A stretch of DNA of 64,000 nt, taken from assembly GCA_037441425.1 (NCBI GenBank), contig JBBISF010000005.1:6529-70528 (forward strand). The letters are read 5' to 3'. Numbering within the stretch: the first letter of the stretch is position 1; the number at the start of each line of letters is the position of its first letter. The translations under genes and the position numbers were made by a program. This stretch comes from Verrucomicrobiia bacterium (GTDB lineage: Bacteria; Verrucomicrobiota; Verrucomicrobiia; Palsa-1439). Below are positions 6,055-58,243 of this stretch, one piece after another. The notes beneath the pieces were generated by a model, which worked only from the letters and a program-made list of their open reading frames with translations, was not told the origin of the DNA and did not search any database.

Positions 6055-6417
6055 GTGGCCATGCTGCAAATTATTTTCAGTCCGGTGGGCGCCAAGGAAC
6101 TGGCGGCCATGCCGAAGAAACTGCAATTGGAATTGATTGACGGTTTTCAGTTGTTGCCGCGCGATTTCGAGAAGGCGGACGCGCATTTTGGTCAACTCAC
6201 GCGCGGTGGGAAAAAAGTCTATCGCTACCGGGTGAAGGACTACCGCATTTATTTCGACAAGGACGGCGACATGATCAATGTCCGGTGTGTTCTCAACAAG
6301 AACTCATTGAAGGATTTCTTTTACCGCTCGAAGCTGCCAATTTCCGAAGACCAACTCCTCCAGGAAAATCCCAAGTTCTGGGAGTTACTGGAGTCCAGCG
6401 CTACAGCGCCTTCGTAA
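6055..6417 (+). CDS. RelE/ParE-like toxin-fold protein (putative, orphan)
   Basis: The pattern IIFSPVGAKELAAMPKKLQ...GKKVYRYRVKDYRIYFDKDGDMINVRCVLNKN matches the RelE/ParE layout (...yRlRvgdyRiiY...v.il.i...). It has a roughly 30-aa C-terminal extension, no antitoxin ORF nearby, and lower GC (about 50%). Confidence 0.35.
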   Translation: MAMLQIIFSPVGAKELAAMPKKLQLELIDGFQLLPRDFEKADAHFGQLTRGGKKVYRYRVKDYRIYFDKDGDMINVRCVLNKNSLKDFFYRSKLPISEDQLLQENPKFWELLESSATAPS

Positions 6418-9400
6418 ACTCCGGCACGAGTTCGTACAAGTCCCCCACCAGCGGAATCACCTTGGGCCGTGCGCGGCGTTGATTCAGCGTCAGCAACGGC
6501 GCGTCGGCATCCTTGTTGAAGGCGATGATCAGCGCCCGTTCCCCGAGGTAATCCACGTGCTGCGGCGCACCGCTGACGCCAAGCGAGATGATCAACTTGG
6601 GATTCACCGCCGTGCCGGTTTGACCGATTTGACGGTCGGGCGTGAGCAGCTTGAGATCTTCCACCACCTTGCGTGTCCCGCCAATCATCACGTTCTGCAC
6701 TCCGATCTTTTCGAGGCGGTCCTTCAGGGGCAAAACGATCAAATCAAAATTCTCCCGGTTCCGGATGGCGTAACCGACATCAATGATCACATCCGCATCA
6801 GCCATCATGAGCGAACGCGCGCGCGCTTCCGCCTGTTTGGGCGGGGGGACGTATTCCAAGTCCAGCGGCACGCGGCAGACGCGTTTTGGCGCGACGGTCT
6901 TGTGCTGACTGCCGGCCGTAAACGTCGCCACCAGCGGATGTTCCTGGACGTTACCGATGGCGAACACGCGGTGCACGTTCCCGCCGAATACCGGCACGGC
7001 CAGTTCATGGTGCGCGATTGCCGCCACATTGTACCGGGCCTGCACGCGCGGGAACGTGCTCGCAAATTGCGCGAACACCTCATTCGCCCACGTCCCGCTG
7101 GCGAGCAGGGACGGCAACGTGTCCTTCCACAGGTATTGGGCGGCGGCGAGCACGCCTTCGGGCGAATCGTCGCGCAATTGCGCGTGCGTACAAAAGAACA
7201 CGGACGCCGCCGCCAGCCGTCCGGCCAATTCCCGGATCTGCTTCTCGTCAGGGTCGCCCACCACCACCACGTGAAACGGCAAACCCAAAGCGGCCGCACA
7301 TTCAGCGGCGGTTTCTGCGCCGTCGCAGTTGCCCGGTGTCGCCACGAACACCGCTGCGGCGCGCGCCGGCACAACTGATTGGTCTGCCGCCTCAATTTTG
7401 CCAGTATATTGCGCGTCGCCATCCGGGCCGGACGATTCCACCCCCGTCAACGCCCGTACCAACTTTGCCGCTGCGGCCGGCGTGGCGACGGTTGGTTGCT
7501 CCCCGGCCGTGACTGCCGGCAAAATAAGACGTGACGGGAACTTCGCGCTGGCGATTATTTGCGCGCTGGGAATGATCTCCAATGGTTTCGACTGAGCCGC
7601 GCAGAAGTCATCGACCGAGAAATTGTTGGCAGCGGTTGCTTCGGTGATGGCGCGGACCGGAGGCAGCCCGCCCAGATTGCTGTTCAAGATGGTGCAGAAC
7701 AGTGCCTCCCCGCATAACACCAAATCACATGAGGGCAGGTGCACGGCGATGTGATCGGCAATCAGTCGAGCAGTCGCATGGATGTCCTCTGGCAGGTCGT
7801 CGGCTTCCAGCAGCACGGCATCGGTTGCGCCGGCGGCCAGCGCGCGGCGGAGAAGTTCGGCGGCATAACGCGGTGCGACGGTCAGGATGGTGAGGCGGAC
7901 GGGTCGTCGCGACAGGCTTGTCGGGACTCCCACATCAAGCTCGAAGTGTGTCTCCAGTAGCTCGCCCTCCACCACGCGCGGTCGCGGTGAAAGAGCCGGC
8001 ACGACGTTGGCGACAACGACAATGTGTTGGGCCGGGGGTAGGATTGCCGGTTGCGGAGCGAGTGCCGGTTTATGTTCTGCTTCCTGCAGCGCGAGCATCG
8101 CAACACGGATTTCGGGTGGGTACAGACCTTGTTTGAGCAGCGCGCAGTCGCGGTCGAACTCGGAGAGGAGGCGCTGGATTTCCCGTTGAGCGCAATCGCA
8201 ATACCGGTCATAGGCCACTTCAGCCAATTGCCGGTGGGGGCTGTCCACAGCGGTCGTATTCTTCGTCAGCCATTGGGTGCGCCACCGGGCGGAATCCATG
8301 GCCTTCAGGTAGCCGGCCATTTCGGCGAGTTTGAACATCGCGGGTTGGAAATTCGCGTTTTGCCAGACTTGTTGACCGAAGGTTTCAACGGCTTGCCGGA
8401 GGCGATCAATCAGCGGGCTGGATTCCTTGGCGTTCGGAAGTGCTTTGTCCACGAGATCGCGCAGAATGAGAAACCGCTGCACTTCGTTCGTGCCTTCGTA
8501 AATGTTCAGCACCCGGGCGTCACGCCGGTGTTTTTCCAGTTCGTGCAATTGGGTGCCGCCTTCCAACCCGTAAATATTCTCCGCGGCCCGAATGACCCGG
8601 TGCAGAACTTCGCTGGCGTAGTATTTGCCGATGGCCGACTCGGTGCGGACGCTCTTCGTGTCGTGATGGTCGAACCGGCCAATCAACTCATACGCGAGCG
8701 ATTCAGTCGCGTAATGCTCGATGGTCATTTCGCCGACGAGTTGCTGGATGTGCGGTTCGTTCTCCAAGCCGCGTTCCCTTACGAATTGCCGGGTTTGCTC
8801 GATGATCTTGGCGGTCATCGCCGCGGCGCTGACGCAGAGGCCGGTGCGCCCGACGTTGAGGGTTTCCAGCGCGTTGACTTGGCCCCGGCCTTCGATGCCG
8901 ATGATGTTTTCCCGTGGGACGCGGACTCCGTTGAGGCTGAGTTCGTTGGTGGGCGAACCGCGCTGGCCCATCTTTTCTTCGTCGCGACCGACCTTCAGCC
9001 CTTCGGAATTGCGGCGGACAAGGAAACCGGTTGGGCCTTCTTTCGTGCGTGCGTACAAGCAAAACACGCCGGCCACGTGGCCGTTGGTGATCCACATCTT
9101 GGCGCCATTGAGTTCGTAGTACTCGTAGAATTCCCGGCCGCCTTCCTTCCGGATCTGCGCGATGTCGGCATCCGGTAGGTTGGCTATGTCCACGGTCGCC
9201 GCGTCCACGATGCCGCGGCGCTCTGTGCCGAGCCGGAAATACTTCGAGCCGTCAGAATTTGTGAAGACTTCGGCGCGCTTCAATTCGGCCCGGGTCTGAA
9301 TGCCACCGGAATCACTGCCGGCACTCGGCTCAGTCAGGGCAAAGGCGCTGATCTGACCGGCACTGATTAAACGCAGGAAGAATTTCGCGGCTTCTGCCCG

Positions 9401-12400
9401 GCGGTCGAGTTCGGCGATGACCATTTCCGCGCGCGGGCGTACGGTGTCCAATGCCGGCCCGCACGCCTGTAGCTCCGCTTTGAACTTCGGCAAGTCCATC
9501 CGCAGTCCAGCCCGTCCGGCATCCATGAAGTGCGTCAGAAATTCGCTCGCAATGGCGCGGAGCATCGGTTTCTTCCCGATGTCAGTTTTCACTTTTTTGC
9601 CGAGCGCGGTGAACGCGTCTTTGACTTTGAGCGCCGCCGGAGATTCGAGCATCCGCAGGAGATTGTGGATTGTGGATTTTAGATTTTGGATCAGGCCGGC
9701 CGCGGCGAGAAACTCTTGGAGGTCAGCTTCGGCGCGCGGCAAGTCTTGGTTCAGGCCGAGGAGGATGGGGGTTGTCCCGATGCTGGAGTGCGCCATGATG
9801 GTGAGCGCGTAACTCGGGTCGGCATACCGCATCGAAAGCGGGCAGAGGATGTAGTAATGGGCCTTGAGCAAGCCGGCGCCGCCGAACTCCTTCGGGATGT
9901 ACATGCGGGTGAAGCCGTGCGCGACCATGTCGTGAACGTCTGCAAGCGGGACTTGGTGGAGACGCTCGACGAGCCGGTAATATTTTTCGCCGGGGCGATA
10001 GACATAGCGCTCGGTGAAATGCCGGTAGAGTTGGTCGTGATAGGCGCGGAGTTCGGGGTCGGCGTGGAGCATTTCCGGAACGTAACGCCACGTCACCGGG
10101 TCGAAGGGCTTGGTAAGAAAATCGCCGTAGTCATAGGGATTGGGTTGGGCGAGTTCAGAGCGGTAGGAGAATGGGGGCGGGGATTGAAGTGGCTGTTCGA
10201 GGAGGTAGCCGCGGGTCAGGACGGTAGAGCCGAGTTCCGCGAGGTCGCGGCGCTGAGGCTGCGCCCACGTTTTGGTTTTCAGCAACTTGATGATTTCGAA
10301 ATCGAGTTCGGTCTGAGGTTCGGACGCGAGCGTCGGCGCACCGGCTGAAGGTTCTTCGTCGTCGAACAGCAAACGTGAGAAGACAACGCTGTCGCGATAG
10401 AACTTGGAGAAGATGTCGTCTTCGCTGTAGGCGCTGCCGCCGATGATTTGGCCGGCGTTGTACGCGAGCGTGAAGAAAGCTTCGCGGGGGTTGGCGGCAT
10501 TGTGACGGAGCTGCCAGACCTGCGCTTCCATTTCGCTGAGCATCTGTTTGACAGCGCCGAACTTGGCGATGCCATCGTGAGCGTCTTCGTCTTGGAACAG
10601 GCCGGGGAATTGGACGCGGCTCCGCGCGTGTTGCCGGCAGCGTTCCAATAACATTTCGCCGGCGCCGCGGACAATAGCGCGGCAATCGGCGGTCAGCGCG
10701 ACCGGGAACTCGCGGGCGTGGCGGCGGGCGGTGTTGAGGCCGATCCATTCGACGTCGGCCAAGTCTGGGCGGGCGGTGATTTGGGCGTGGGCGATGCCGG
10801 AGACGAGGAGCGCGAGCGAGACGTCGCGCGCGGCGAGGGCGCGGAGAATGTCCGGTGTGGGCTGAAGAGACTTGAGAAAGGCGAGTTGGTCGGCGGTGAG
10901 GCGCGCGCCGCGTTCGAGGTCTTTGATGGATTGTTTGGTGAAGTGGTGCTCAATTCCGGATTCGGTTGTGAGGTCCTTCGCTTCGCTCAGGAAGACCGAT
11001 GGGGAAGGGGCGAGGTGTTTCTGTACCTCCGCTTCCGCCCAGAAGAACTTGCCGGCTTTGGCATAAGCGAGGGCGCGGTCACAACCGGAATCTTCCAGCA
11101 GGGAGAGCAGCCATTGGCGCCGGCCGGTGTCGAGGTAGCGCGGGCCGGAATGGATCGAAGTGCAAAACTGCTGCAACTTCTCGTGGGAGCGGCGTCCCCG
11201 CCGCGATTCGGGGACCTGTCGCGGCGGGGATGCCGCTCCCACCATACCGGAGTTTAGAACCGCCAGCAGCTTGCGGTTAGCCGGTGTGGGCGAACTGAAG
11301 ACCAAACGCTGTTCGCGGTGCCGGGTCCAGTCCACGTCAGCAGGGGCGGCGCGCCAGCAGGTTTCGCATTTGATGCAGTTCTCGAAGTGCACCACGATCT
11401 GCACTTGGCCGAGATCGTCGGTGTGTTGCTCGTACACTTTGGCGGGACAGACGTGCCACAATGGTGAGTCGGCGAGTTTGCGGCGATCTTCAAAATGCTC
11501 GGGACGCTGCACTTTGATATGGCTGGTCTTCTCGGAGGAATACCGGATGAGGGAAAGTTTTTCTTCGATCGGCTGCGCGAGCGGGACGGCGTCGAGATTG
11601 GCGCGTTGCCGGACGAGGGCGAGGGTGCGTTGGTAGAAGGAGGACAGGTATTTTTCGGGGGAGGGTCGGGTGACGAGCAGCCCGATCATTTCGCAAAGCC
11701 ATTGGAAAGGCGCGAGCAGCGCCGTGAGGAAGGGCCACCCGCCGAGCGACCAGGGGCGCGGGGCGGAACGCAAGGCGTGGCGCAGCTTGACCGGCAAAGG
11801 CGTATCGTCATTGCGATAAGGGTGATCGCAAGCGGAACGCAGACGGGACGCGAGCTTCTGAAAACGGGGTTGGCCGTTGATGGAAATGGAGACTGCGCCG
11901 GCGTGTCGGAGTGCTGGCGCGCGTGAGGAACCGGCGCGCTGGAGACCGAGGGCGGCGCGTTGTTGCCGCAGGTCGCGGAAGAATTCGCCCCAGCGTTTGG
12001 GCGGGAGCGTTTCGCGGAGGAACTTGGCTTGTTGCCAGAGTTTCTGGCCGGGGCGGAGATCGGGATGCGTGGCGATATGCAGCGCGCCGCAGGCGAGATC
12101 GGCGGCGCGGCCGAAGAAGACGCGCGTGTGGGCGACGTAGTGCGGCCAGTCTTGGAGGAATTCGACGTTCTGGAAATAGTGCGTTTGCCGGAGCGGCTTT
12201 TCGTAGAGTTCGGTGAGATGTTCCCGGCGGAAATCGCCGTGGGCTTGTCGGACGGCTTGGGCGAACAGGCGGCCCATCGCGGTGGCGGGACCGGTATAGT
12301 TGGGGAATGGGAAATCGAGGCCGATGCCGGTGCACGCCCCGCCGAGCGCGAGACCGTGGTCGACGAGTTGGGGGAGTTCCCGGAAGCCGCCGCCGCGGAT

Positions 12401-13255
12401 GAGCTTCGCGCCGTAGGCAACGGCGCGTCCGCCGCCGGTGAGGCGTTGGATTTCCGGCAGCGATTTGAACCACTCCATCAGCCGGTTGTGATCGCCTTTG
12501 AATTCGCGCGCGAGGTTGTCGAGCGGCATCACGAGGCCCAGCGAGAGGCTGGAATGGTTGGTGTAGATGAACCCGCCCATGTTGAGTTGCAGCTTGCCGG
12601 GATTGCGCAGGATGATTTCGTAAGCCGCGCCTTCACCCGGCGGAAGGGCAAACCGGGATTCGATTTCGGCAGGATCGAGTTCGATGACTTCTTTGATGCC
12701 TTGAAGAAAATGGGGGGTGTTGTTCGGGCAGCGTTCGTAGCCTTCCTTGGTGACGAGATGCGAGGCGTCGCCTTCAGCGAGAAAGACAACGGCGGCGTAA
12801 ATCGGGCCACGCGTGGTGTGGACGCCGATCACTTTGCCGGCCGAGTCGCGCAGCAAGCCGGTCGCGGTGGTTTCGGTGAGGATGGTGGCGCCGAAAGATT
12901 TGGCCAGTTCGGCAAGATAATGGTCGTATGTCGGACGGAGAACGGTGTAGCAATGCCGGAAGGTGTCGGGGTTGTGATAGGTCAGGCCGACGAGTGTGTG
13001 GCCGTTGTAGAGATGGATACCGCGTTTGGTGACGGGCCGTTCCCAAGCGGATGCACGAACCGCTTCCTCGCCGAGCACGTCCGGCTGGGCGAGGTTCTCG
13101 GTGAAATAGACGGCGCCCGACCAGTTCTCCGCGCCGGGGAATTTGCCGGCTTCGAGAACGAGGACGGGAATCTGCGCTTTGGCGAGAGCGATGGCGGCGG
13201 TGATCCCGGCGGGGCCAGCGCCAACGATGACAACATCGTATTTCCAATCGGCCAT
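6401..13255 (-). CDS. 2301-aa multidomain flavoprotein fusing ETF:quinone oxidoreductase (FAD plus 4Fe-4S), acyl-CoA dehydrogenase, ETF-beta (FixA-like) and ETF-alpha (FixB-like) domains
   Basis: Residue numbers follow the track ORF starting at 13306. The likely start is the ATG at 13255 (MADWKYDVVIVGAGPAGITAA, a dinucleotide-binding motif). ETF-QO covers about residues 18-670 and ends with the 4Fe-4S signature WHVCPAKVYE...NCIKCETC. The ACAD core covers about residues 1080-1620 (FALTEPSAGSDSGG; MWITNGHVAGVFCLYART; VLNIYEGTNEVQRFLILRDL). ETF-beta-like covers about 1760-1960 (HIVVVANVVP...DLVLCGEALF). ETF-alpha covers about 1975-2301 (ISLGVSGAPQHVDYLGERALIIAFNKDADAP...VGDLYELVPEF). One frame with no stop across 6.9 kb. 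Confidence 0.85.
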   Translation of the reverse strand: MADWKYDVVIVGAGPAGITAAIALAKAQIPVLVLEAGKFPGAENWSGAVYFTENLAQPDVLGEEAVRASAWERPVTKRGIHLYNGHTLVGLTYHNPDTFRHCYTVLRPTYDHYLAELAKSFGATILTETTATGLLRDSAGKVIGVHTTRGPIYAAVVFLAEGDASHLVTKEGYERCPNNTPHFLQGIKEVIELDPAEIESRFALPPGEGAAYEIILRNPGKLQLNMGGFIYTNHSSLSLGLVMPLDNLAREFKGDHNRLMEWFKSLPEIQRLTGGGRAVAYGAKLIRGGGFRELPQLVDHGLALGGACTGIGLDFPFPNYTGPATAMGRLFAQAVRQAHGDFRREHLTELYEKPLRQTHYFQNVEFLQDWPHYVAHTRVFFGRAADLACGALHIATHPDLRPGQKLWQQAKFLRETLPPKRWGEFFRDLRQQRAALGLQRAGSSRAPALRHAGAVSISINGQPRFQKLASRLRSACDHPYRNDDTPLPVKLRHALRSAPRPWSLGGWPFLTALLAPFQWLCEMIGLLVTRPSPEKYLSSFYQRTLALVRQRANLDAVPLAQPIEEKLSLIRYSSEKTSHIKVQRPEHFEDRRKLADSPLWHVCPAKVYEQHTDDLGQVQIVVHFENCIKCETCWRAAPADVDWTRHREQRLVFSSPTPANRKLLAVLNSGMVGAASPPRQVPESRRGRRSHEKLQQFCTSIHSGPRYLDTGRRQWLLSLLEDSGCDRALAYAKAGKFFWAEAEVQKHLAPSPSVFLSEAKDLTTESGIEHHFTKQSIKDLERGARLTADQLAFLKSLQPTPDILRALAARDVSLALLVSGIAHAQITARPDLADVEWIGLNTARRHAREFPVALTADCRAIVRGAGEMLLERCRQHARSRVQFPGLFQDEDAHDGIAKFGAVKQMLSEMEAQVWQLRHNAANPREAFFTLAYNAGQIIGGSAYSEDDIFSKFYRDSVVFSRLLFDDEEPSAGAPTLASEPQTELDFEIIKLLKTKTWAQPQRRDLAELGSTVLTRGYLLEQPLQSPPPFSYRSELAQPNPYDYGDFLTKPFDPVTWRYVPEMLHADPELRAYHDQLYRHFTERYVYRPGEKYYRLVERLHQVPLADVHDMVAHGFTRMYIPKEFGGAGLLKAHYYILCPLSMRYADPSYALTIMAHSSIGTTPILLGLNQDLPRAEADLQEFLAAAGLIQNLKSTIHNLLRMLESPAALKVKDAFTALGKKVKTDIGKKPMLRAIASEFLTHFMDAGRAGLRMDLPKFKAELQACGPALDTVRPRAEMVIAELDRRAEAAKFFLRLISAGQISAFALTEPSAGSDSGGIQTRAELKRAEVFTNSDGSKYFRLGTERRGIVDAATVDIANLPDADIAQIRKEGGREFYEYYELNGAKMWITNGHVAGVFCLYARTKEGPTGFLVRRNSEGLKVGRDEEKMGQRGSPTNELSLNGVRVPRENIIGIEGRGQVNALETLNVGRTGLCVSAAAMTAKIIEQTRQFVRERGLENEPHIQQLVGEMTIEHYATESLAYELIGRFDHHDTKSVRTESAIGKYYASEVLHRVIRAAENIYGLEGGTQLHELEKHRRDARVLNIYEGTNEVQRFLILRDLVDKALPNAKESSPLIDRLRQAVETFGQQVWQNANFQPAMFKLAEMAGYLKAMDSARWRTQWLTKNTTAVDSPHRQLAEVAYDRYCDCAQREIQRLLSEFDRDCALLKQGLYPPEIRVAMLALQEAEHKPALAPQPAILPPAQHIVVVANVVPALSPRPRVVEGELLETHFELDVGVPTSLSRRPVRLTILTVAPRYAAELLRRALAAGATDAVLLEADDLPEDIHATARLIADHIAVHLPSCDLVLCGEALFCTILNSNLGGLPPVRAITEATAANNFSVDDFCAAQSKPLEIIPSAQIIASAKFPSRLILPAVTAGEQPTVATPAAAAKLVRALTGVESSGPDGDAQYTGKIEAADQSVVPARAAAVFVATPGNCDGAETAAECAAALGLPFHVVVVGDPDEKQIRELAGRLAAASVFFCTHAQLRDDSPEGVLAAAQYLWKDTLPSLLASGTWANEVFAQFASTFPRVQARYNVAAIAHHELAVPVFGGNVHRVFAIGNVQEHPLVATFTAGSQHKTVAPKRVCRVPLDLEYVPPPKQAEARARSLMMADADVIIDVGYAIRNRENFDLIVLPLKDRLEKIGVQNVMIGGTRKVVEDLKLLTPDRQIGQTGTAVNPKLIISLGVSGAPQHVDYLGERALIIAFNKDADAPLLTLNQRRARPKVIPLVGDLYELVPEFTKAL

Positions 13256-13292
13256 CGAAAGGAATATAGTTCGCGGTGAGAGGAGAACAAAG

Positions 13293-14726
13293 ATGAAATT
13301 TTTCAAATGGATGGCGGTGCTGTTGCTGGCAGCAGTCGTGGCGCGTGCCGCGGAGAACCAAGACGAAGGCGTGGCGCTGACGATTTACAACCAGAACTTT
13401 GGCGTGGTGCGGGAGAAACGTAACGTCGAAGTGCCGGATAAACTGGGCGCGATCCGGTTCGGCGACGTGGCGGCGCAGATTGACGGCACGAGCGTGCAGT
13501 TCAAGTCGTTGACCGATCCGACGGCGACGGTGCTGGAACAGAACTACGAATACGACCTCGTCTCCGCTGACAAGCTCTTGCAGAAGTACATTGATAAGCA
13601 GATCACGGTGTTGACCAAGGATGGTTCACGGTATTCCGGTAATCTGTTGAGCTTCGATGGAAATCAACTGGTCATCCGGCAGTTTGGTGAGAAGGGCGAT
13701 CTGGTGATGGTCCAGCGCGGCGACAACGTGAAAGACATCGAGTTCGGTGCATTACCGGAAGGACTAATCACCAAGCCAACGCTGGTGTGGAAGCTGGCGA
13801 CGGAGAAGCCCGGCAAGCAGTTGATCGAGGTGGCCTATCAGACGGGCGGCCTGAATTGGTATGCCGACTACAATGCCGTGTTGAATGCGAAGGATACGCA
13901 GATGGATTTTGCCGGTTGGGTGACGATTGAGAACAAGTCGGGAGCGACTTACAAGGATGCACGGCTAAAGCTCATTGCCGGAGATGTGCGTCGGGTGCAA
14001 CCGATGGCACAGGGCACGATGCCGTTGAAAATGGCGCTATCGGAGGCAGCTCCTGCGCCCGGTTTCGAGGAAAAGGCATTCTTTGAATATCACCTCTACA
14101 CGTTGCAGCGGGCAACAACGGTTGCCGAGAACCAGACGAAGCAGATTGAGTTGTTGAAGACGGCGGATGTGCCGGTGAAGAAGGTTTACCTTTACGATGG
14201 TGCACCGCAGTTTAGGTTTTACGGTGGACTGAATACCAACGCCGGCTACGGCAGTGAGGAGTCGAACAAGAAGGTCAACGTCATCATCGAGGTTAAGAAT
14301 TCCCAGGAAAATCACATGGGCATGGCGTTGCCAAAGGGGAAGGTCCGGCTTTACAAACGCGACGAGGCGGATAAATCACTGGAGTTCATCGGTGAGGATG
14401 AGATTGATCACACGCCCAAAGACGAGACGATCAAGCTGCATGTTGGCGATGCGTTTGACGTGGTCGGGGAGCGGAAGCGCACCGACTTCAAAGTGGACAA
14501 CGCCGCCCACTGGATGACCGAGAGCTTCGAGATTCGCGGTCGCAATCACAAGGATGAGCCGGTCGAAGTGCTGGTCAAGGAGACGTTGTACCGGTGGAAT
14601 AACTGGGAGATCACCCAGGCCAGCCACAAGTGGACGAAATTCGATTCCAACACGATTCACTTCCCGGTGAAAGTCGACAAGGACGGCGAACAGGTCATCA
14701 CCTACACGGTCCGATACACGTGGTAA
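13293..14726 (+). CDS. secreted DUF4139/DUF4140-like protein (paralog 1 of 4)
   Basis: Signal peptide MKFFKWMAVLLLAAVVARA with AGGAGA 7 nt upstream of the ATG at 13293. It shares the architecture and motifs of the paralogs at 53478, 55765 and 56933 (TIYN..., ...GGLNWYADY..., C-terminal ...TVRYTW). The track ORF extends upstream to 13143. Confidence 0.75.
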   Translation: MKFFKWMAVLLLAAVVARAAENQDEGVALTIYNQNFGVVREKRNVEVPDKLGAIRFGDVAAQIDGTSVQFKSLTDPTATVLEQNYEYDLVSADKLLQKYIDKQITVLTKDGSRYSGNLLSFDGNQLVIRQFGEKGDLVMVQRGDNVKDIEFGALPEGLITKPTLVWKLATEKPGKQLIEVAYQTGGLNWYADYNAVLNAKDTQMDFAGWVTIENKSGATYKDARLKLIAGDVRRVQPMAQGTMPLKMALSEAAPAPGFEEKAFFEYHLYTLQRATTVAENQTKQIELLKTADVPVKKVYLYDGAPQFRFYGGLNTNAGYGSEESNKKVNVIIEVKNSQENHMGMALPKGKVRLYKRDEADKSLEFIGEDEIDHTPKDETIKLHVGDAFDVVGERKRTDFKVDNAAHWMTESFEIRGRNHKDEPVEVLVKETLYRWNNWEITQASHKWTKFDSNTIHFPVKVDKDGEQVITYTVRYTW

Positions 14727-44972: not shown

Positions 44973-45024
44973 GGCGCGAGGATAATTGCTTTTCGGGCGG
45001 GTCGCGATTAAAAATCGCCCCGCA

Positions 45025-46728
45025 ATGAGGTGGCGGCTGGCAATCGCGTTGGTGGTGGTGGCAGTGCTTTATGTCTGCCACGTGCATCTGAAGACGGCCA
45101 AGATTTTTGCCAACCCGACTTGGGATGGCCACGACGATACCGGCCAGTTCTGGAGTGAGTGTGCGGTTCATTACCGGCTCGCCAAGTTCTTCGCGACGCA
45201 TCCAGTCCGGGATTGGGAAGCATTGAGCCGTGACCGCAAGATTCAATATCCGGACCCGACCGACGATTGGGCGGAATTCACCATTGCGATGGAGGTGCCG
45301 GTGGGGGTTTTGTACCGGTGGTGCCAACCGGCAATTCCATTTCACGTGTGGGTGGTCTGGTACGACTGCGTGGTGTCGAGCCTGACACTGTTTGCGCTGT
45401 TCTTCCTCGCCCGGTCCTTGTGGCAGTCGGATTTTGCCGGGGTGATGGCGAGTGTGTTGTATGCCGGATTGTACCCGAGCTACGGGCGGACGGTGAAGAA
45501 TCTGTTTTTGAAGGAAGATTTTGCGATTCCCTTGATTGTGCTGGCGGTCTTTCTTTCGATCCGCATGTTGCAAGACGAACGCGTCCGCTATCAGGTGGGC
45601 GCCGGGTTGATGTGGCTCGTCGCGCTGGCCAGTTGGCATTTGACGCAATTTCTGCTGGCGGTGGCCGTGGGAGCGGTGGTGTTGGTGTATCTCGGGAAAG
45701 GTGAGACGCCCCGGCGTCCGTGGTTGGTGCTCGTGCTGACCGCCGGGGCGTTGTGCGTGCCGGTGTTGCGCGCGAAACAGTTCTACATTTCGCCGATGAT
45801 GTGTACGGTGTGGGCGCTGACGTTGGCGGCGTGGATTGATGGGGGGCGCCAAAAGGCGGCGCTGGTGTTTGCCGGATGGTTGGTGGCGTTTTTGGCGGTG
45901 GGCGCGGTGATGGGCAAATCCCTCGGCGAATATGCGCATGTGTACGAGTTGTTTTTCAACAAGCTCCGGTATCTTGGCGAGAAGCCCGCCGATCCGAAGG
46001 CGTTGCCGTGGGAGGCGCGGTGTTTGTGGGAGAGCGCGTTTGAGACGGCGCGCTGGAGCGAATGGTGGCACAGTTTGCTGTGGTGCGGGCCGCTGGCAAT
46101 CGTGGGCGTGTGGGGCGTAAACCGCAGGAGCGTGGAGCGCAATGTGTTTGTGGTATTCACGTTGTTGCTGGTGCCGTTGAGTTGGATGGTGTTGCGGTAT
46201 TTTACGTTTCTCGGCTGGGCGGCGGCGGTGCTGGCGGCCGGGGTGGCGACCAAACGGATCGGGTGGAAGGTGGTGGTGGTGGCTGCCGCCGTGTGGCAAT
46301 TGGCGACGCTGAACTTCCAGCCGTTGGACCGCGCGCCGGTGGTGCCGGCCGATTACAAACCGGTTGTGCAATGGATCAACGCCAACACGCCGCCGAACGC
46401 CGTGATGCTGGCTTCGATTGCCGAGTCGCCGGTGCTGCTGGCGTACACGGGGCGACCGATCATTCTGCAATCGAAATTCGAGAACCGGGAAATTCGGGAG
46501 CGGGATCGGGAGTTTCTCGCGGCGGCGTACGGAAACGCGGATGCCCTGTACAATTACTGCCGGAAATATGGCGCGGATTACTTCGTGTGGGATTCCGGCT
46601 TCTTGTCGGCAACGCGAAAATACAAAGCCGGCAATGTCGCCGCGGTGCCGGTCTGGCCCGACAAATCCCCGCACTTCCGGTTGGAATTTTCAACGCCCCG
46701 GTTTGCGGTATTTCGCGTGTTGAAATAG
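45025..46728 (+). CDS. large multipass membrane protein, possible GT-C-fold glycosyltransferase
   Basis: About 12 predicted TM helices plus a C-terminal soluble domain, lying directly upstream of the exosortase/EPS genes. Assigned by architecture only. Confidence 0.4.
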   Translation: MRWRLAIALVVVAVLYVCHVHLKTAKIFANPTWDGHDDTGQFWSECAVHYRLAKFFATHPVRDWEALSRDRKIQYPDPTDDWAEFTIAMEVPVGVLYRWCQPAIPFHVWVVWYDCVVSSLTLFALFFLARSLWQSDFAGVMASVLYAGLYPSYGRTVKNLFLKEDFAIPLIVLAVFLSIRMLQDERVRYQVGAGLMWLVALASWHLTQFLLAVAVGAVVLVYLGKGETPRRPWLVLVLTAGALCVPVLRAKQFYISPMMCTVWALTLAAWIDGGRQKAALVFAGWLVAFLAVGAVMGKSLGEYAHVYELFFNKLRYLGEKPADPKALPWEARCLWESAFETARWSEWWHSLLWCGPLAIVGVWGVNRRSVERNVFVVFTLLLVPLSWMVLRYFTFLGWAAAVLAAGVATKRIGWKVVVVAAAVWQLATLNFQPLDRAPVVPADYKPVVQWINANTPPNAVMLASIAESPVLLAYTGRPIILQSKFENREIRERDREFLAAAYGNADALYNYCRKYGADYFVWDSGFLSATRKYKAGNVAAVPVWPDKSPHFRLEFSTPRFAVFRVLK

Positions 46729-47057: not shown

Positions 47058-48041
47058 ATGGATAAACCGCCTTTAACAGGAAGTATCAAGCTGCCCACCA
47101 CCGCAACCGGTTGGATGAGGTGGGTTCTCGGGGCCATCATTGTCGGCTTGATTGGTTACGGCTATTTTGTTCAGCCGGTGGACCTCCACTTCACCTGCGC
47201 CACGTGGTTGTACAATCAATGGACTTGGCCGGGAACGAACTACTCCCATGGACCGCTCGTGCCGCTGATCGCGCTGGGACTAATGGCGATGAAGCATCGG
47301 GAGATCCGCGCGGTCCGCTTTTCCCCCGTGATGTCCGCCGCCTGGATCATCGTGGTTGCCATGGCGTTTTATTATCTGGGGGTAAAAGGGATGCAGCCCC
47401 GTATCCAAGTCGGGGCGTTGGTCCTGCTGTTGTGGGGCCTCACGCTGACCTTGGGTGGCCGGCAGTTATTTGGGGAGTTGGTGTTTCCGATCGGATTCCT
47501 GGTGTTGATGATTCCGCTGAACTTTCTGGATGGCGTGCTCGGCTTCCCGCTGCAAATTCTGATGGCCAAGATTTCCACCGGCGTCCTGAACGGGATGGGC
47601 ATGGAAGCGCAGCGCGTCGGCAGCGGCATCCGCACGCCGGTGTTCAATTTCGACGTCGCCAGTCCGTGCAGCGGCATTCGCTCGCTCATGGCGCTGATGA
47701 CCGTGACGGCGGCGTTTGGTTACCTGACGCAACGCCGGCTTTGGAAACGCGTGGTGTTGTTTCTGGCGGCGATTCCGTTGGCGGTGATGGGGAACGTGTG
47801 CCGGGTGTTGGGGATCGCGTTGGTGGGTCAGATTTACGGCGCCAAACTCGCCATGGAAGTTCACGACACTGTGGCGGGATTCATCGTCTACGGCGTAGCC
47901 CTCGCGTGCATGGTGGCCTTCGGTCTCCTGCTGAACGTGCCGCTTCGCCCGATCATCGACAAGTGGCTTCAGCCCCTTCAACCCGCGACCGCCAACCAAG
48001 AAGCGCCGACCGCGCAGCAAAGGAAGGAAAACCATGAGTGA
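47058..48041 (+). CDS. exosortase (Xrt family transpeptidase)
   Basis: Eight-TM protein with the exosortase signature Cys (FDVASPCSGIRSLMAL) and a downstream Arg/Asn pair (GNVCRVLGIALVG). Confidence 0.75.
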   Translation: MDKPPLTGSIKLPTTATGWMRWVLGAIIVGLIGYGYFVQPVDLHFTCATWLYNQWTWPGTNYSHGPLVPLIALGLMAMKHREIRAVRFSPVMSAAWIIVVAMAFYYLGVKGMQPRIQVGALVLLLWGLTLTLGGRQLFGELVFPIGFLVLMIPLNFLDGVLGFPLQILMAKISTGVLNGMGMEAQRVGSGIRTPVFNFDVASPCSGIRSLMALMTVTAAFGYLTQRRLWKRVVLFLAAIPLAVMGNVCRVLGIALVGQIYGAKLAMEVHDTVAGFIVYGVALACMVAFGLLLNVPLRPIIDKWLQPLQPATANQEAPTAQQRKENHE

Positions 48042-53109: not shown

Positions 53110-53402
53110 AGCGCTTGCTCGAACGTCCGCCACATCTTCTCGTCGAATAAACAAAACACCACCCGGCTCAACCCGGTCTTGCCGCTCAAATACGTCGCCG
53201 TTTCATCGAACATCTGGTTGGCCGCGCGTTCGACCGGGAAACCGTAGATCCCGGTGCTGATCGCCGGGAACGCGATGGGCTTTAGTCCTTTCTCATCCGC
53301 CAAGGCCAACGAACTCCGAATGGCCTTCCGCAACCGCGCATCCGCTTCCGCCGGCTGGCCCGCGACTACGAGCGACTGGCGACGACACTGGCTGGTTATC
53401 AC
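53106..53402 (-). pseudogene. macro-domain (ADP-ribose binding/deacetylase) C-terminal fragment, N-terminal half missing
   Basis: GLKPIAFPAISTGIYGFPVERAA is the C-terminal macro-domain motif. The ORF (GTG start) is only 98 aa and no N-terminal macro motifs are found upstream in any frame. Confidence 0.5.
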
Positions 53403-53477
53403 TGGCTCGCCTTGTCATCCTGATGCTCAAATCCCTGTTTGCCAGAAGTGCATCACAGGCTCTAGACTGACCCGTGG

Positions 53478-55265
53478 ATGAAGGAGAGATTTATGAGCAT
53501 TCGATCTGGAGCAGTTGCCTGGATGGCTTTGCTGGCGCTGACGGCCCCAATGGCGCGAGCGGAAAAGGCGGCACCGTTGTCAGCGCTGGCCAAGATGCCG
53601 GTAAAGGAAATCACGGTATTCAAGGACGGGCATGCGTTCGTGCTGCACACCGGCAAGATGCCGACCGACGAGCACGGGAACGTGCTCATGGATTATCTGC
53701 CGACCCCGGTGATCGGCACGTTCTGGCCGTACTCGGCGGAGAAACGGGCCAAGCTCAGCGCGGTGACGGCCAGTGCCCGGAAGGTATTGGTGGAACGGAC
53801 CGCGCTGAATCTTCGCGAGTTGCTCGAGGCGAATGTTGGTGCTGAAGTATTCGTCACGGAAACGGTTGCAACGAACCACTACCGGGCAACCATTCTGGAT
53901 GTGCCGGCACAGAGTGGTGACGAGTTGGAAGCCATCAGCCCGCCGGATTCCGGCCAGAAGCTACCGGAGCAAGGCAATGTGGTGCTGCTCAAGTTGCAGG
54001 AAGGAGGCGTTAAGGTCGTCGCGCTCGACCGGATTCAAGACGTGACTTTCGTGGGCGACCACAAGGAGAAGGTCGCGCAGGAAGAGTTCCGCAATTTGCT
54101 GACGCTCAAGCTCGATTGGGATGGGCGGCCGCAGAGAGAAGCAGAGGTGGGGTTGTTGTACTTGCAGCGCGGCGTGCGCTGGATTCCCAACTACAAGGTC
54201 ACGATTGACGGCAAGGGCAACGCCGTCGTGAAACTACAGGCGACGCTGATTAACGAACTGACCGACCTCGAAGACGTGACCGCACACTTGGTCATCGGCG
54301 TCCCGACGTTTGCGTTCAAGGAAACGGTGGACCCGATGTCGTTGCAGCAGGCGGTGGCGCAACTCTCGCAGTACTTCCGGCAAGACGCCCAGACGGCGAA
54401 CGGCTTTGCCAATGCGATCATGAGCCAGCAGGCGTTGCGGATGGGAGACTACCGCGGTGCTCCAGCGGCACCCGAGCCGGGCCGCACGATTGACCTCGGG
54501 CCGGAAGTCGCGACTTCTGGCAAGACCGAAGATCTGTTCATGTTCAGTGTGAAGCATGTGACGCTGAAGAAGGGCCAGCGGATGGTGGTGCCGATTACGG
54601 AGTTCACACTCAAGTACAAGGACGTGTACACGCTCGACATTCCGTTCAGCCCGCCGCCGGAGGTCTGGCGCAACTTCAACAACAACCCGCAACAAGCCGA
54701 ACTCGCGCGGTTGTTTAACTCACCAAAAGTCATGCACAAGATTCGACTGACCAACAGCAGTGAGTATCCGCTCACCACCGCGCCGGCGCTGATTCTGCGT
54801 GATGACCGGGTGCTGGCGCAGGGCTTGATGACGTACGCGTCGCCCGGCGCCGATGCCGATTTGGACGTGACAACCGCGGTGGATGTGCGCGTGAAAAAAT
54901 CCGATAACGAAACGAAGCGTACGCCCAATGCTGCGAATTGGCAGGGCGACCAGTACGGACGCATTGACCTCACCGGCAAGATCACGCTCACCAACTTCGC
55001 CAAGCAGCCGGTCGAGGTTGAGATCGTCCGCAACGTGTTAGGCAACGTCACCGAAGCCGATCACGACGGGAGGATTGAGATGGTCAACATCTTCGAGGAT
55101 CCGAGCTTCGGCGCGGGCGGACCGTATCCATACTGGTGGGGTTGGTTCAACTGGCCGTGGTGGTGGCATCACTTCAACGGCGTCGGGCGAATCACCTGGA
55201 TCGTCAAACTCGAGCCCGGCAAACCGCTCGACCTCGACTACACTTGGAATTACTATTGGCGCTGA
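53478..55265 (+). CDS. secreted DUF4139/DUF4140-like protein (paralog 2 of 4, largest, Trp-rich C-terminal segment)
   Basis: Signal peptide MSIRSGAVAWMALLALTAPMARA and the shared family architecture. Unique C-terminal GPYPYWWGWFNWPWWWHHFNG. Confidence 0.75.
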   Translation: MKERFMSIRSGAVAWMALLALTAPMARAEKAAPLSALAKMPVKEITVFKDGHAFVLHTGKMPTDEHGNVLMDYLPTPVIGTFWPYSAEKRAKLSAVTASARKVLVERTALNLRELLEANVGAEVFVTETVATNHYRATILDVPAQSGDELEAISPPDSGQKLPEQGNVVLLKLQEGGVKVVALDRIQDVTFVGDHKEKVAQEEFRNLLTLKLDWDGRPQREAEVGLLYLQRGVRWIPNYKVTIDGKGNAVVKLQATLINELTDLEDVTAHLVIGVPTFAFKETVDPMSLQQAVAQLSQYFRQDAQTANGFANAIMSQQALRMGDYRGAPAAPEPGRTIDLGPEVATSGKTEDLFMFSVKHVTLKKGQRMVVPITEFTLKYKDVYTLDIPFSPPPEVWRNFNNNPQQAELARLFNSPKVMHKIRLTNSSEYPLTTAPALILRDDRVLAQGLMTYASPGADADLDVTTAVDVRVKKSDNETKRTPNAANWQGDQYGRIDLTGKITLTNFAKQPVEVEIVRNVLGNVTEADHDGRIEMVNIFEDPSFGAGGPYPYWWGWFNWPWWWHHFNGVGRITWIVKLEPGKPLDLDYTWNYYWR

Positions 55266-55378
55266 TGAAAATCAGCGTGGTTGAAGACGGCGCGCTGCTC
55301 CGCGACGGACTGGTGGACTTGCTCAAAGGTTCCGGGCATGCCGATCTTGTGGATCATGAGTGCGGTCGAACCTTTTGA
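55265..55378 (+). pseudogene. 37-codon fragment resembling a response-regulator receiver N-terminus
   Basis: MKISVVEDGALLRDGLVDLLKGSGHADLV... then stop. It starts in a TGATG overlap with the upstream stop. Could be coincidental. Confidence 0.25.
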
Positions 55379-55649
55379 ACAACTCTGGCGTCAACCCAAC
55401 CGGATGGGCGACCTCCCGCCCGAAACGTGGTCGGAACAACTCAAGTCGGACCACGAAACCGTGCGCAAGCTCAACAAATACAAAAATCAGGGGGTCCGCG
55501 CTCACTGTTGCATGGTCATCGGTTACCACAAGATCACCAAGGAAGTGGCGACTTCAGACTCGTGGGGAGCGTTCGCACAAGAACGGTGGTTCCCCTTGGA
55601 AGCCTCCCAAAATGTTTTCAGCGATACGTACAGTGTGATCCATTGGTAG
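55281..55649 (+). pseudogene. C-terminal fragment paralogous to the C39-like peptidase domain of the 17547 protein
   Basis: HCCMVIGYHKITKEVATSDSWGAFAQERWFPLEASQNVFSDTYSV aligns with HMRLIIGYNDRAKEILYTDTWGPGHEEKRMSLADAWTITLGLYSV from 17547-18992. No upstream Cys-motif region. Confidence 0.5.
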
Positions 55650-55764
55650 ATTTTGGGTAGCGGCGCATCGGTGATGTCACCTCGTAAAACTTCCAGGATG
55701 GCATTCCTGGTTTTTTTCTGCATGACGAAGGGAACTCTAGCCAACCGGCGGTGTCAGCACGAGT

Positions 55765-56931
55765 ATGAAACCAATCATCATCACCGTTGGTTTGCTCCTG
55801 ATGGTCAACACCGCCCACGCCCGCGTGAAACTGGTCGCGCTGCCGGAACGGGCGCGCGTGGTCGTTTCCCTCGCCAATCCCGACGCGACGCTCGTCGAAG
55901 AGGAACGCGTTCTGACGTTGCAGAAAGGTGTGAACCAGGTGGATTTCTCCTGGCGGGAGGTGAACATCGATCCCGCCTCGATCCAAGTGCGGATGTTGAA
56001 GAATCCGGACAAGGTGCTGGTGCTCAATACCAGCTATCCGCCCAATGAAAACGCGTTAATCTGGGAAGTCAGTAGCCCTGCTGCCAGCGAGGAACGCGTG
56101 CGCATCTCGTACCTGCTCCAAGGTTTGGCGCGCGACATCGTGTACAAAGCCGTAGCCGAGCCGAATGAGAAATCGTTCACTCTCCGCAATTATCTGCGCC
56201 TGCGCAATGATTCGGGTGAAGACCTGACCGATGCCGAGATTGGCCTGGGTTACGGCGCGGACTTCAAACGCAGCATCGGCAACGGCGAAATCCTCGAACT
56301 GCTCTCCGAGCGCCTCGACGGCGTGGTGATCAAGAAGACGTTGAACTGGGACGCCGCGCTGCAGCCGTGGGATCCGGAATACCAAAAGCAGACCGTCGGT
56401 CTGCCGCTCACCTACATCATCCAAAACGACAAGGCCAGCCAACTCGGCGCGCACACGTTGCTGCCCGGCAAGGCGCGCATTTTCATCAAGACCGGCGCGC
56501 CAGGCGAAGGCGTGGCGTTTACCGGCGAGGATTGGGTGACGCTGACGCCGCCCGACCGGGAGTTGAAACTCTCCATCGGCCAGAGCCGCGACGTGAAAGT
56601 CACCCAGCGCAAACTCAAGGAGGACCGGGTCAACATCCGCCGCAACAACAACAATCAGATCGTCCTGTACGACGTGGATGAGGAGTACAAAGTCGAGATT
56701 GAGAACTTCAAGAAGGAGCCCGCGTCGCTGGTGTTGACCGAACACATCCCCGGTTACTGGGAGATGATGAAGAACTCCCACGAACAGCAGTACCGGAAGA
56801 AAGACGCCTACACCATCGAGTATGGCCTCACTTTGCCGGCCGAATCCACGGGCGACCAGAAGACCATCGTCGCCTTCAAGATTCTCCGCAAGAACGTCCA
56901 ACCCAACATCGCGGAGCCGCGGAGCTACTGA
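55765..56931 (+). CDS. secreted DUF4139/DUF4140-like protein (paralog 3 of 4)
   Basis: Signal peptide MKPIIITVGLLLMVNTAHA; shared motifs (GVNQVDFSW, IDPASIQVR) with the other paralogs. Confidence 0.75.
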   Translation: MKPIIITVGLLLMVNTAHARVKLVALPERARVVVSLANPDATLVEEERVLTLQKGVNQVDFSWREVNIDPASIQVRMLKNPDKVLVLNTSYPPNENALIWEVSSPAASEERVRISYLLQGLARDIVYKAVAEPNEKSFTLRNYLRLRNDSGEDLTDAEIGLGYGADFKRSIGNGEILELLSERLDGVVIKKTLNWDAALQPWDPEYQKQTVGLPLTYIIQNDKASQLGAHTLLPGKARIFIKTGAPGEGVAFTGEDWVTLTPPDRELKLSIGQSRDVKVTQRKLKEDRVNIRRNNNNQIVLYDVDEEYKVEIENFKKEPASLVLTEHIPGYWEMMKNSHEQQYRKKDAYTIEYGLTLPAESTGDQKTIVAFKILRKNVQPNIAEPRSY

Positions 56932-56932
56932 C

Positions 56933-58243
56933 ATGAAAACTATTTTTGTTCTCTTGGGCACTTGGGCACTGGTTACTTCCGCGTTGGCGCGAATCAACGT
57001 CGTCACCCTGCCCGGGCGCGATTCCGTTCAACTCACCATCTACAACTCCGCCGACCTGACGATGGTCAAGGAGACCCGCCACCTCACCTTCCGCAAGGGG
57101 TTGAACAAGCTGGAGTTTTCGTGGGCGAACACGCTGATTGACCCCACGTCGGTCGAGTTCCGCGCGCTCACGCACGCCGATCAGGTTGAGGTGCTCGATG
57201 TCCGGTTCCCGCCGCGGGTCACCAACACGCTCGAATGGCACATCCAGAGTGAAGTGGCCGGTGAGGTGGAGGTGGAGATCCGGTATTTCACCAGCGGTAT
57301 TAGTTGGGCGGCGGACTACGTCGCCGAAGCCAACAAGCCCGAGAAGACGATGACGCTGGCCGGCAACGTCCGCATCACCAATAACAGCGGCGAGGATTAT
57401 GAGAACGCGCAGATCCGCCTCGTCGTCGGCGTCATCCGGTTAGTCGAAGAGATTCGGCAGCTCGCGCAGCAAGGCCGGCCGGGACCGATGCCGCCGATGC
57501 TGGTGACGGCTCCTTTCAGGGGATTCGGGGGATTCAGGCGAGAGGGGATGGAACTGGCCAAGGCTGCTGACATGGCCGAGATGCGGCCAAGGGAAATCGT
57601 CAAAGAAGGCGTCTCGGAGTACTTTCTCTACACGGTTGAAGGCCGGGACACGATTCCCAACGGCTGGTCGAAGCGGCTGCCGTCGTTCCGGGCGACGGAT
57701 GTGCCGCTGGTCAGCTATTACAAGTTCGAGAACGAACAGTGGGGCAATCAGGTCGTCCGGTTCTACCGGTTCAAAAACGACAAGGAAAGCCAGCTCGGCA
57801 ACGAACCGCTGCCGGATGGCGCGGTGATGGCCTTCCGCACAGTCACGCCCGATAATCTGTGCGTGTTCGTGGGTCGCACCGACGCGAAGTACATCCCGAT
57901 TGGCGAACAGGTCGAACTCAATCTCGGCAACGACCTCGAAGTTATGGTCAAACCCAAGCTCATGAACTGGGTGAAAGATGACATCCGGTTCAACCAGAGC
58001 GGCAACGTGGATGGTTGGACAATCAAGGAGACGTGGCAGATCGAAGTGCAGAACAGCAAAGATATCAATGTCGTCCTCGACATCCGCCGCAATTTTGCCG
58101 GCGATTGGGATCTCAAGACCGATGCCCCATATGAAAAGGTGGATGCCCAAAAGGTGAAATTCGTCATTCCGTTGAAAGCGCACGAGAAACAAACGGTTTC
58201 CTATGAACTCACGACCCGGTATGGGACGAACGTTACTCGCTAG
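56933..58243 (+). CDS. secreted DUF4139/DUF4140-like protein (paralog 4 of 4)
   Basis: Signal peptide MKTIFVLLGTWALVTSALA and shared motifs (TIYNSADL, GLNKLEFSW, IDPTSVEFR, FTSGISWAADY). The ATG at 56933 follows the upstream stop after 1 nt. Confidence 0.75.
   Translation: MKTIFVLLGTWALVTSALARINVVTLPGRDSVQLTIYNSADLTMVKETRHLTFRKGLNKLEFSWANTLIDPTSVEFRALTHADQVEVLDVRFPPRVTNTLEWHIQSEVAGEVEVEIRYFTSGISWAADYVAEANKPEKTMTLAGNVRITNNSGEDYENAQIRLVVGVIRLVEEIRQLAQQGRPGPMPPMLVTAPFRGFGGFRREGMELAKAADMAEMRPREIVKEGVSEYFLYTVEGRDTIPNGWSKRLPSFRATDVPLVSYYKFENEQWGNQVVRFYRFKNDKESQLGNEPLPDGAVMAFRTVTPDNLCVFVGRTDAKYIPIGEQVELNLGNDLEVMVKPKLMNWVKDDIRFNQSGNVDGWTIKETWQIEVQNSKDINVVLDIRRNFAGDWDLKTDAPYEKVDAQKVKFVIPLKAHEKQTVSYELTTRYGTNVTR

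Follow-up and report, generated by a model that had tools for sequence, protein, structure and literature searches.

DUF4139-superfamily genes beside a rearrangement scar in a Verrucomicrobiia bacterium: ancient paralogs and a conserved operon of a proposed envelope module

Do neighboring genes of one protein family record a recent burst of duplication, or are they old genes that a rearrangement has brought together? This question is raised by positions 53478 to 58243 of a 64,000-nucleotide stretch of DNA from a Verrucomicrobiia bacterium (GenBank assembly GCA_037441425.1, contig JBBISF010000005.1, positions 6,529 to 70,528 of the forward strand), hereafter called the window. An initial annotation, made from the sequence alone, described three consecutive genes there and a fourth elsewhere in the window as a lineage-specific expansion of secreted DUF4139/DUF4140-like proteins. 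We labeled these genes A, B, C, and D (Table 1). RR denotes a response regulator, HK a kinase, TPR a lipoprotein with TPR repeats, and L-numbers the compared loci from relatives and other genomes. In the reading that we consider probable, the window carries four ancient exported paralogs of the DUF4139/MuiA superfamily; B, C, and the TPR lipoprotein gene form a conserved operon, A was placed next to this operon by a deletion or rearrangement, and the whole may serve as an envelope module.

The open reading frames (ORFs) of 388-595 aa were confirmed for all four genes. Three family members on one strand within 4.8 kb, beside pseudogene fragments, give the impression that a single gene recently produced three adjacent copies and a dispersed fourth. 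The identities made this explanation extremely improbable. BLASTP aligned B with C at 26% identity (E 5e-39), C with D at 24% (E 2e-26), and B with D at E 1.6e-10, and it returned nothing for A against B, C, or D (E>0.1). Each copy, in contrast, has orthologs of 70-88% identity elsewhere; the ranges, mostly from verrucomicrobial genomes, were 60-88% for A, 70-85% for C, and 75-86% for D, which is a singleton in relatives. Because the paralogs are at most 26% identical or unalignable, compared with 70-88% for their orthologs, the duplications appear to be ancient, and the pairwise identities suggested earlier as a means of dating them describe copies less alike than their own orthologs. Further evidence against an expansion was that B and C are kept as a pair across 79 loci, that A stands in a different operon in relatives, and that the nearby fragments trace back to a regulator and to an unrelated gene rather than to DUF4139 copies. 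These comparisons indicate that the window holds ancient paralogs, each in its own orthologous group, with no recent expansion.

Membership in the superfamily was examined against PF13598 (DUF4139; gathering score 31.8 bits), PF13600 (DUF4140; 27 bits), and TIGR02231, the MuiA family (cut-off 112.6 bits). In the Pfam scan, C exceeded the gathering score of PF13598 (44.1 bits, model positions 1-203 of 205), and all 120 listed among its more than 6000 homologs are flagged PF13598. B (22.9 bits, E 8e-5) and D (24.8 bits, E 2e-5) scored below the gathering score but spanned the model, and the D orthologs of 75-86% identity carry the DUF4139/PF13598 annotation in precomputed data. A had no Pfam match at E<=0.1. 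The proposed DUF4139 family was recovered for C above the gathering score, for B and D through sub-threshold matches and their BLASTP similarity to C, and for A at the superfamily level alone, as described below. The DUF4140 assignment was not borne out; a sub-threshold match was observed in B alone (17.5 bits against 27, E 0.006), and the Pfam scan gave none in A, C, or D. All four proteins produced partial matches to TIGR02231 (A 22.5, B 32.1, C 36.7, and D 19.2 bits; E 2e-9 to 4e-4), which centered on a conserved G-x-x-W-x-x-x-Y strand region.

The likeness of A to the DUF4139 pair might also be explained by beta-rich composition shared between unrelated proteins. The missing BLASTP and Pfam matches are consistent with this explanation, as are the shallow profiles of close homologs, which gave weak results in hhalign (probability of 35% with the C family and 0.7% with the D family). 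We consider it highly unlikely in view of the wider A family. Divergent members were gathered through an exhaustive search of representatives, which yielded 2414 clusters at E<=1e-3, clustered at 50% identity; in the representatives search with the A profile, A-family members alone were present among the best 150 matches listed. DUF4139 was the sole Pfam match in 8 of 10 divergent full-length members, and one of the divergent members (P0504) exceeded the PF13598 gathering score (33.2 bits, model positions 1-200 of 205). PF13598 was also matched by 5 of 26 close members. With a diverse alignment of 33 A-family sequences (profile A5; number of effective sequences, Neff, 4.3), the hhalign probability rose to 96.5% against the C family (A3; E 9e-10, 304 columns) and to 92.7% against the D family (A4; E 4e-7, 426 columns). 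Both alignments were colinear and near full-length; that with the D family ran nearly end to end, from the first beta-strands, the N-terminal regions of A and D included, through an inserted small barrel to the C-terminal strand. When the A5 hidden Markov model (HMM) was run against the 271 window ORFs of at least 80 aa, it ranked A first, followed by C (1e-8) and B (3e-5), and matched no others. Furthermore, two other genomes (L008 and L083) carry A within DUF4139 arrays. On the basis of the diverse-profile and HMM results, A is to be placed as a genuine but very remote DUF4139 relative, at the superfamily level, and the superfamily genes in the window are counted as exactly four. A failure of the four proteins to align had been named earlier as grounds for rejecting a common family; B, C, and D aligned in BLASTP, and A aligned through diverse-profile hhalign and not through BLASTP.

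The four proteins do not share one architecture or one set of motifs, as had been claimed. Each of the quoted motifs was found in one or two of the four proteins, and none was found in A. A and D are long forms that comprise an N-terminal beta domain, an Sm/SH3-like barrel, and the DUF4139 region, and B and C are without the barrel. The D barrel (approximately residues 91-150) matched Pfam LSM above its gathering score (25.4 against 23.4 bits) and LSm chains in the PDB at E 0.02-0.8; at the equivalent position, the small barrel of the A model gave local Tudor-domain matches in Foldseek. A linker at one conserved position varies from approximately 65 disordered residues in A (283-349) and approximately 60 aa in C to a short segment in D and almost none in B. 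A loop of A at approximately residues 545-566, YPYWWGWFNWPWWWHHFNG, contains seven Trp in 22 residues, most of which do not vary across the A family, and is absent from B, C, and D; it could serve as a membrane-interface or glycan-binding platform.

The order B>C>(C'>)TPR> recurred among the 79 metagenomic loci fetched with the C family, none of which contained A. Complete arrays carried two DUF4139 genes in 15 loci, three in 9, one in 9, and four in 1, and the gene gaps were mostly -23 to +36 nt. A TPR gene followed the DUF4139 genes in at least 28 loci by a reading of the gene strings, or in 21 of 49 by a strict criterion. The B ortholog lies directly 5' of the C ortholog in L004, L005, L008, and many metagenomic loci, and L004 has the same 1-nt B-C spacer and the same 23-nt C-TPR overlap as the window; the neighbors upstream of B differ among loci. 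These findings argue that B-C-TPR is probably a translationally coupled operon conserved in related bacteria. Spacers of 1-500 bp had been reported, and 499 bp (A-B) and 1 nt (B-C) were found. The supposed array of three, however, consists of two units: a promoter-like site precedes A itself, and a hairpin resembling a terminator (55693-55710; CCAGGATGGCATTCCTGG, followed by TTTTTTT) separates A from B-C-TPR. The promoter-like site agrees with the consensus at 9 of 12 positions; it is a consensus match only, no commoner than in shuffled sequence.

We then compared the locus with its counterparts in relatives. L004 and L005 have the order exosortase-EpsI-sugar transferase-epimerase, further genes, RR(-)-SDR-macro(-), and then B-C-TPR-RR-HK. 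Around the A homologs closest to that of the window, macro(-) is followed by A-RR-HK and a gene of approximately 350 aa in L090 and L175, and in L177 and L178 the order is A-RR-HK and a gene of approximately 330 aa. The correspondence was closest between L175 (macro, then A-RR-HK-366aa-RR<-tmk-holB-Wzy_C) and L005 (macro, then B-C-TPR-RR-HK-376aa-RR<-holB-Wzy_C), in which RR is 89%, HK 73%, and macro 77% identical. Since these two are one locus with orthologous RR and HK genes, A and B-C-TPR alternate in front of a single two-component system. The HK of relatives has a first transmembrane segment, a periplasmic domain of approximately 280-320 aa, and a second transmembrane segment. Elsewhere, A and DUF4139 genes occur together: L008 has B-C-C'-TPR-A-tmk, and L083, a metagenome-assembled genome of the Planctomycetota (6964-13059), has DUF4139-DUF4139-A-DUF4139 and then fba, an independent instance of the linkage beyond Verrucomicrobiota. 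Several of these gene orders would be explained if descendants of an ancestral B-C-TPR-A-RR-HK cluster had each lost different genes; no extant cluster of this type was found among the compared loci.

Several neighbors of A-family genes in the compared loci were also recorded. Giant secreted proteins of approximately 2000-2400 aa are encoded in L006 (718-7998, directly before A), L090 (8317-14202), and L091 (6846-12323); they are orthologous (54-62% identical), contain an internal duplication of the N-half and C-half, adjoin A or RR-HK genes in relatives, and yielded no informative Pfam domain in these three loci. In L002 (5720-9809) and L003 (1446-5601), the A homolog follows a multi-pass membrane protein of 613-635 aa, without a Pfam match, and a small ORF. 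In L002, an integrase and a terminase-like gene lie upstream of this group.

In gene order, the window is a hybrid of the A type and the B-C-TPR type. Left-flank synteny with L090 and L004 reaches approximately 53290-53410, within a macro-domain gene (O-acetyl-ADP-ribose deacetylase-like) that is intact, with 171-181 aa, in all four relatives examined. The truncation of this gene, noticed earlier, was confirmed: tblastn with the full-length macro proteins of L090 and L004 recovered approximately residues 64-169 (53411-53112), and the Pfam Macro match is confined to model positions 72-117 of 118. On the other side of A, its TGA overlaps the ATG of an RR-gene remnant (TGATG). This remnant is 73-81% identical to RR residues 1-26 of L090, L091, and L004 in tblastn, and in blastn it showed 81% identity over 79 bp and no homology further on. 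The adjoining fragment X had no Pfam, NCBIfam, or PADLOC match and no match in any fetched locus; a 122-aa ORF at this position is in part the RR remnant read out of frame. A first impression that fragment X was the C-terminus of a papain-like peptidase was unsupported. Orthologs of the RR, HK, 350-aa, and giant genes are absent from the 64-kb window.

The gene-fragment scar proposed earlier is therefore present, and the duplication or insertion dynamics attributed to it require revision. Because the scar joins the start of a regulator gene (its first 79 bp) to what remains of an unrelated gene at its 3' end, it appears to record a deletion or rearrangement; because RR and HK are absent and no flanking repeats, integrase, or G+C shift was observed around A (the host DNA has 60% G+C), neither a duplication nor a mobile insertion is indicated. 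Such an event would have removed HK, all of RR beyond codon 26, and the 5' part of the macro gene, and would have placed A 499 bp upstream of B-C-TPR. Alternatively, the insertion of A itself, through horizontal transfer or a mobile element, could have truncated the macro gene. The A family has a patchy distribution (at least 10 phyla, 56-83% identity) and variable contexts, and one homolog has an integrase and a terminase-like gene as neighbors. This alternative is very unlikely, because A occupies the same macro-adjacent slot in the close relatives L090 and L175, with synteny on both sides, because the signs of insertion listed above are missing, and because A was absent from 2.9 million viral contigs and had no PADLOC match; a defense or phage origin was rejected on the same two results.

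Table 1. Features of the locus, with positions numbered from the first nucleotide of the window
Feature	Start	End	Strand	Description
A	53478	55265	+	595-aa ORF; divergent long-form DUF4139-superfamily protein
B	55765	56931	+	388 aa; short-form DUF4139 protein; first gene of the conserved operon
C	56933	58243	+	436 aa; short-form DUF4139 protein
D	13293	14726	+	477 aa; stand-alone long-form DUF4139 protein with an Sm/SH3-like insert (residues ~91-150)
TPR lipoprotein	58221	58709	+	162 aa; first 23 nt shared with the 3' end of C
Macro-domain gene remnant	53106	53411	-	approximately the first 65 codons gone
Promoter-like site	53439	53468	+	directly 5' of A; TTGCCA-18-TAGACT
RR-gene remnant	55265	55343	+	first 26 codons of an OmpR-type response-regulator gene
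Fragment X	55344	55649	+	3'-terminal piece of a gene, in another frame than the RR remnant; open frame ends at 55649
Terminator-like hairpin and T7	55693	55717	+	between fragment X and B

Two of the gene models in Table 1 have competing starts. For A, the ATG at 53493 is the likelier start, giving 590 aa, because AAGGAG stands 8 nt before it and the National Center for Biotechnology Information (NCBI) model has 590 aa. For C, the ORF list contains a further upstream ATG at 56822, which the homolog lengths do not support; the 436-aa form is the NCBI model. In the window, B-C-TPR is followed by enolase. D is adjoined by a single ORF of 2301 aa on the reverse strand (6401-13306). The gene in the position of this ORF in L174 unites FAD-oxidoreductase, ETF-QO, acyl-CoA dehydrogenase, and ETF alpha/beta in one polypeptide.

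To the extent that the N-termini permit prediction, all four DUF4139-type proteins look like substrates of the Sec pathway with signal peptides of type I (SPI). Inspection and hydropathy, both heuristic, revealed in each a positive stretch, a hydrophobic stretch (Kyte-Doolittle 2.3-3.1), and an AxA-type end, in agreement with the initial annotation; the predicted cleavage sites in the order A, B, C, and D are ARA/E, AHA/R, ALA/R, and ARA/A, the slash marking the cleavage. The TPR protein begins with MGRTLLASFGALLLAGC, in which inspection identified a lipobox (LLAG/C) that fits L-x-[AG]-C, so it looks like a lipoprotein processed by signal peptidase II (SPII). It had several TPR Pfam matches and weak BamD, YbgF, and Tgl NCBIfam matches (E 3e-7 to 7e-4). 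B, C, and the TPR lipoprotein may assemble into a periplasmic complex that the lipoprotein tethers to a membrane.

The genes appear to be maintained by selection. Ratios of nonsynonymous to synonymous substitution (dN/dS; Nei-Gojobori, against relatives, with dS of approximately 1, near saturation) were 0.08 for A, 0.10-0.14 for C, 0.22 for B, and 0.40 for TPR, compared with 0.13 for the flanking epimerase and 0.28 for the flanking SDR gene. The A family was found in 519 species representatives from at least 10 phyla at 56-83% identity, including Verrucomicrobiota, Kiritimatiellia, Planctomycetota, Acidobacteriota, Armatimonadota, Gemmatimonadota, Ignavibacteria, Melainabacteria, Desulfobacterota, and others. 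Across 70 A-family loci from many phyla, no conserved neighbor of A was found. Sequence comparison thus indicates an A subfamily that is very divergent from the rest of the superfamily, exceptionally conserved internally, and missed by Pfam.

Structure prediction, which had been suggested as a source of functional clues, yielded a usable model for A and weak, generic matches. The AlphaFold2 (AF2) model of A (predicted local distance difference test, pLDDT, 74.7) is nearly all beta, and its Foldseek matches in the PDB were Ost1/RPN1, PIG-T, alpha-2-macroglobulin, and integrin legs at a template-modeling (TM) score of approximately 0.1. We read these matches as indicating no more than a chain of beta-sandwiches; a weak possibility is that the fold is related to that of the luminal beta-sandwich subunits Ost1/ribophorin I and PIG-T, which headed this insignificant list. 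The C model was poor (pLDDT 44); its sole confident domain, at the C-terminus, is a CBM2- or Ig-type sandwich with generic matches at E of approximately 0.02. Sequence profile searches of the PDB revealed no solved structure related by sequence; the sole exceptions were the Sm-like matches to the D insert and sub-significant matches to a collagenase collagen-binding domain. A, B, C, and D are probably cell-envelope proteins composed mostly of beta-sandwiches.

What such proteins might do is suggested in part by their surroundings. The main alternative to the envelope module is that they are carbohydrate-binding or polysaccharide-handling envelope proteins that serve the adjacent exosortase/PEP-CTERM exopolysaccharide locus. 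This alternative draws on the genes upstream (a Dpy19-like GT-C, an exosortase, a sugar transferase, and an epimerase), on sub-threshold matches of B and C to aldose 1-epimerase and the GH65 N-terminal supersandwich, on the resemblance of the C-terminal domain of the C model to CBM2 cellulose-binding and glycosidase accessory domains, and on the Trp-rich loop of A. We regard it as possible but doubtful, because all such matches were below significance (E 0.01-0.1), the upstream neighbors of B vary among loci, and no glycan-related neighbor of A-family genes was conserved in the 70 loci. The Dpy19-like gene (44986-46728), which lies just upstream of the exosortase (47058-48041) and sugar-transferase genes, has a 580-aa product with a match (PF10034, E 6e-22) to the Dpy19 family of C-mannosyltransferases, which is of eukaryote type.

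Returning to the envelope module, we suggest tentatively that it is periplasmic, tethered by the lipoprotein, and tied to envelope signaling or stress, by analogy with MuiA. Predicted export, the coupling of B and C with TPR, the neighboring periplasm-sensing kinase in the clade, and strong purifying selection together point in this direction, and the module would feed into, or be controlled by, envelope signaling. A more specific and less likely possibility is that A and B-C-TPR act as interchangeable co-sensor cassettes, each providing periplasmic input to one envelope two-component system conserved in the Verrucomicrobiota. If this were true, the DUF4139/MuiA superfamily would represent a general class of envelope-signaling accessory proteins, with the unannotated A subfamily (at least 10 phyla and approximately 2400 clusters at 50% identity, with dN/dS of approximately 0.08 and an invariant Trp-rich loop) as its most constrained branch.

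Several observations weigh against the envelope module. The link to a two-component system is confined to the clade of the window: by the gene strings, 1 of 70 A-family loci has such a regulator as the next ORF, and a minority of the sampled B-C-TPR loci have RR-HK next. In the window itself, A, B, and C are intact despite the absence of the two-component system, which suggests that a nearby copy is not strictly needed. All four proteins scored 19-37 bits against the TIGR02231 cut-off of 112.6, and the analogy with MuiA is therefore distant. The structural matches were weak and generic (TM approximately 0.1-0.5) and the C model poor, and these subfamilies are without any studied member or a solved structure that matches by sequence.

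DUF4139 is a large family that extends across the kingdoms of life and is essentially without functional literature; the literature searched with DUF4139, DUF4140, TIGR02231, and PA1494 contained no functional study beyond those on MuiA. In this setting, the locus contributes two new elements, namely a large, conserved, Pfam-unannotated A family that can now be assigned to the DUF4139 superfamily, and the alternation of A and B-C-TPR before one two-component system, which provides a testable hypothesis of envelope signaling consistent with the findings on MuiA. It is otherwise an ordinary case of genome rearrangement with pseudogene remnants, in a catalogued and poorly understood envelope family.

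Compared with the family models, C lies above the PF13598 gathering score, B and D span the model, A is linked through profile-profile comparison and intermediates, and B weakly matches the N-terminal DUF4140 model PF13600. Unlike the PF13598 model, A has the Trp-rich loop and the linker of approximately 65 aa, and A and D carry the extra Sm/SH3-like insert. The TPR lipoprotein resembles BamD/YfiO, CpoB/YbgF, and Tgl in being a small lipoprotein with TPR repeats and weak matches to their models; at approximately 30 bits against curated cut-offs of 81-225, and much shorter than BamD, it is not an ortholog of these proteins.

Accessory proteins of envelope signaling provide a second comparison. 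CpxP, which acts with CpxAR, is a periplasmic accessory factor of a two-component system, and NlpE and RcsF are lipoprotein sensors. The proteins studied here have no sequence or fold relationship to CpxP, NlpE, or RcsF, their association with a two-component system is found in the clade of the window only, and in the window that system is deleted. Similar to those systems, however, relatives encode exported proteins and a lipoprotein right upstream of an RR and a kinase with a large periplasmic domain.

The only studied family member is MuiA (PA1494, TIGR02231), which belongs to the SbrI envelope-stress regulon of Pseudomonas. In P. aeruginosa, muiA is transcribed by the extracytoplasmic function (ECF) sigma factor SbrI and is induced by osmotic shock, D-cycloserine, and CtpA overproduction; its product represses swarming, favors biofilm formation, and lowers alginate promoter activity (PMC10418997), and its abundance is higher in biofilms (PMC7603352). 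The scores of A, B, C, and D are far below the TIGR02231 cut-off, and none belongs to that subfamily; moreover, the neighboring regulator is an OmpR/HK pair rather than an ECF sigma/anti-sigma pair. Like MuiA, the four proteins appear to be exported and match TIGR02231 in part, and in relatives their genes adjoin an envelope-facing signaling system.

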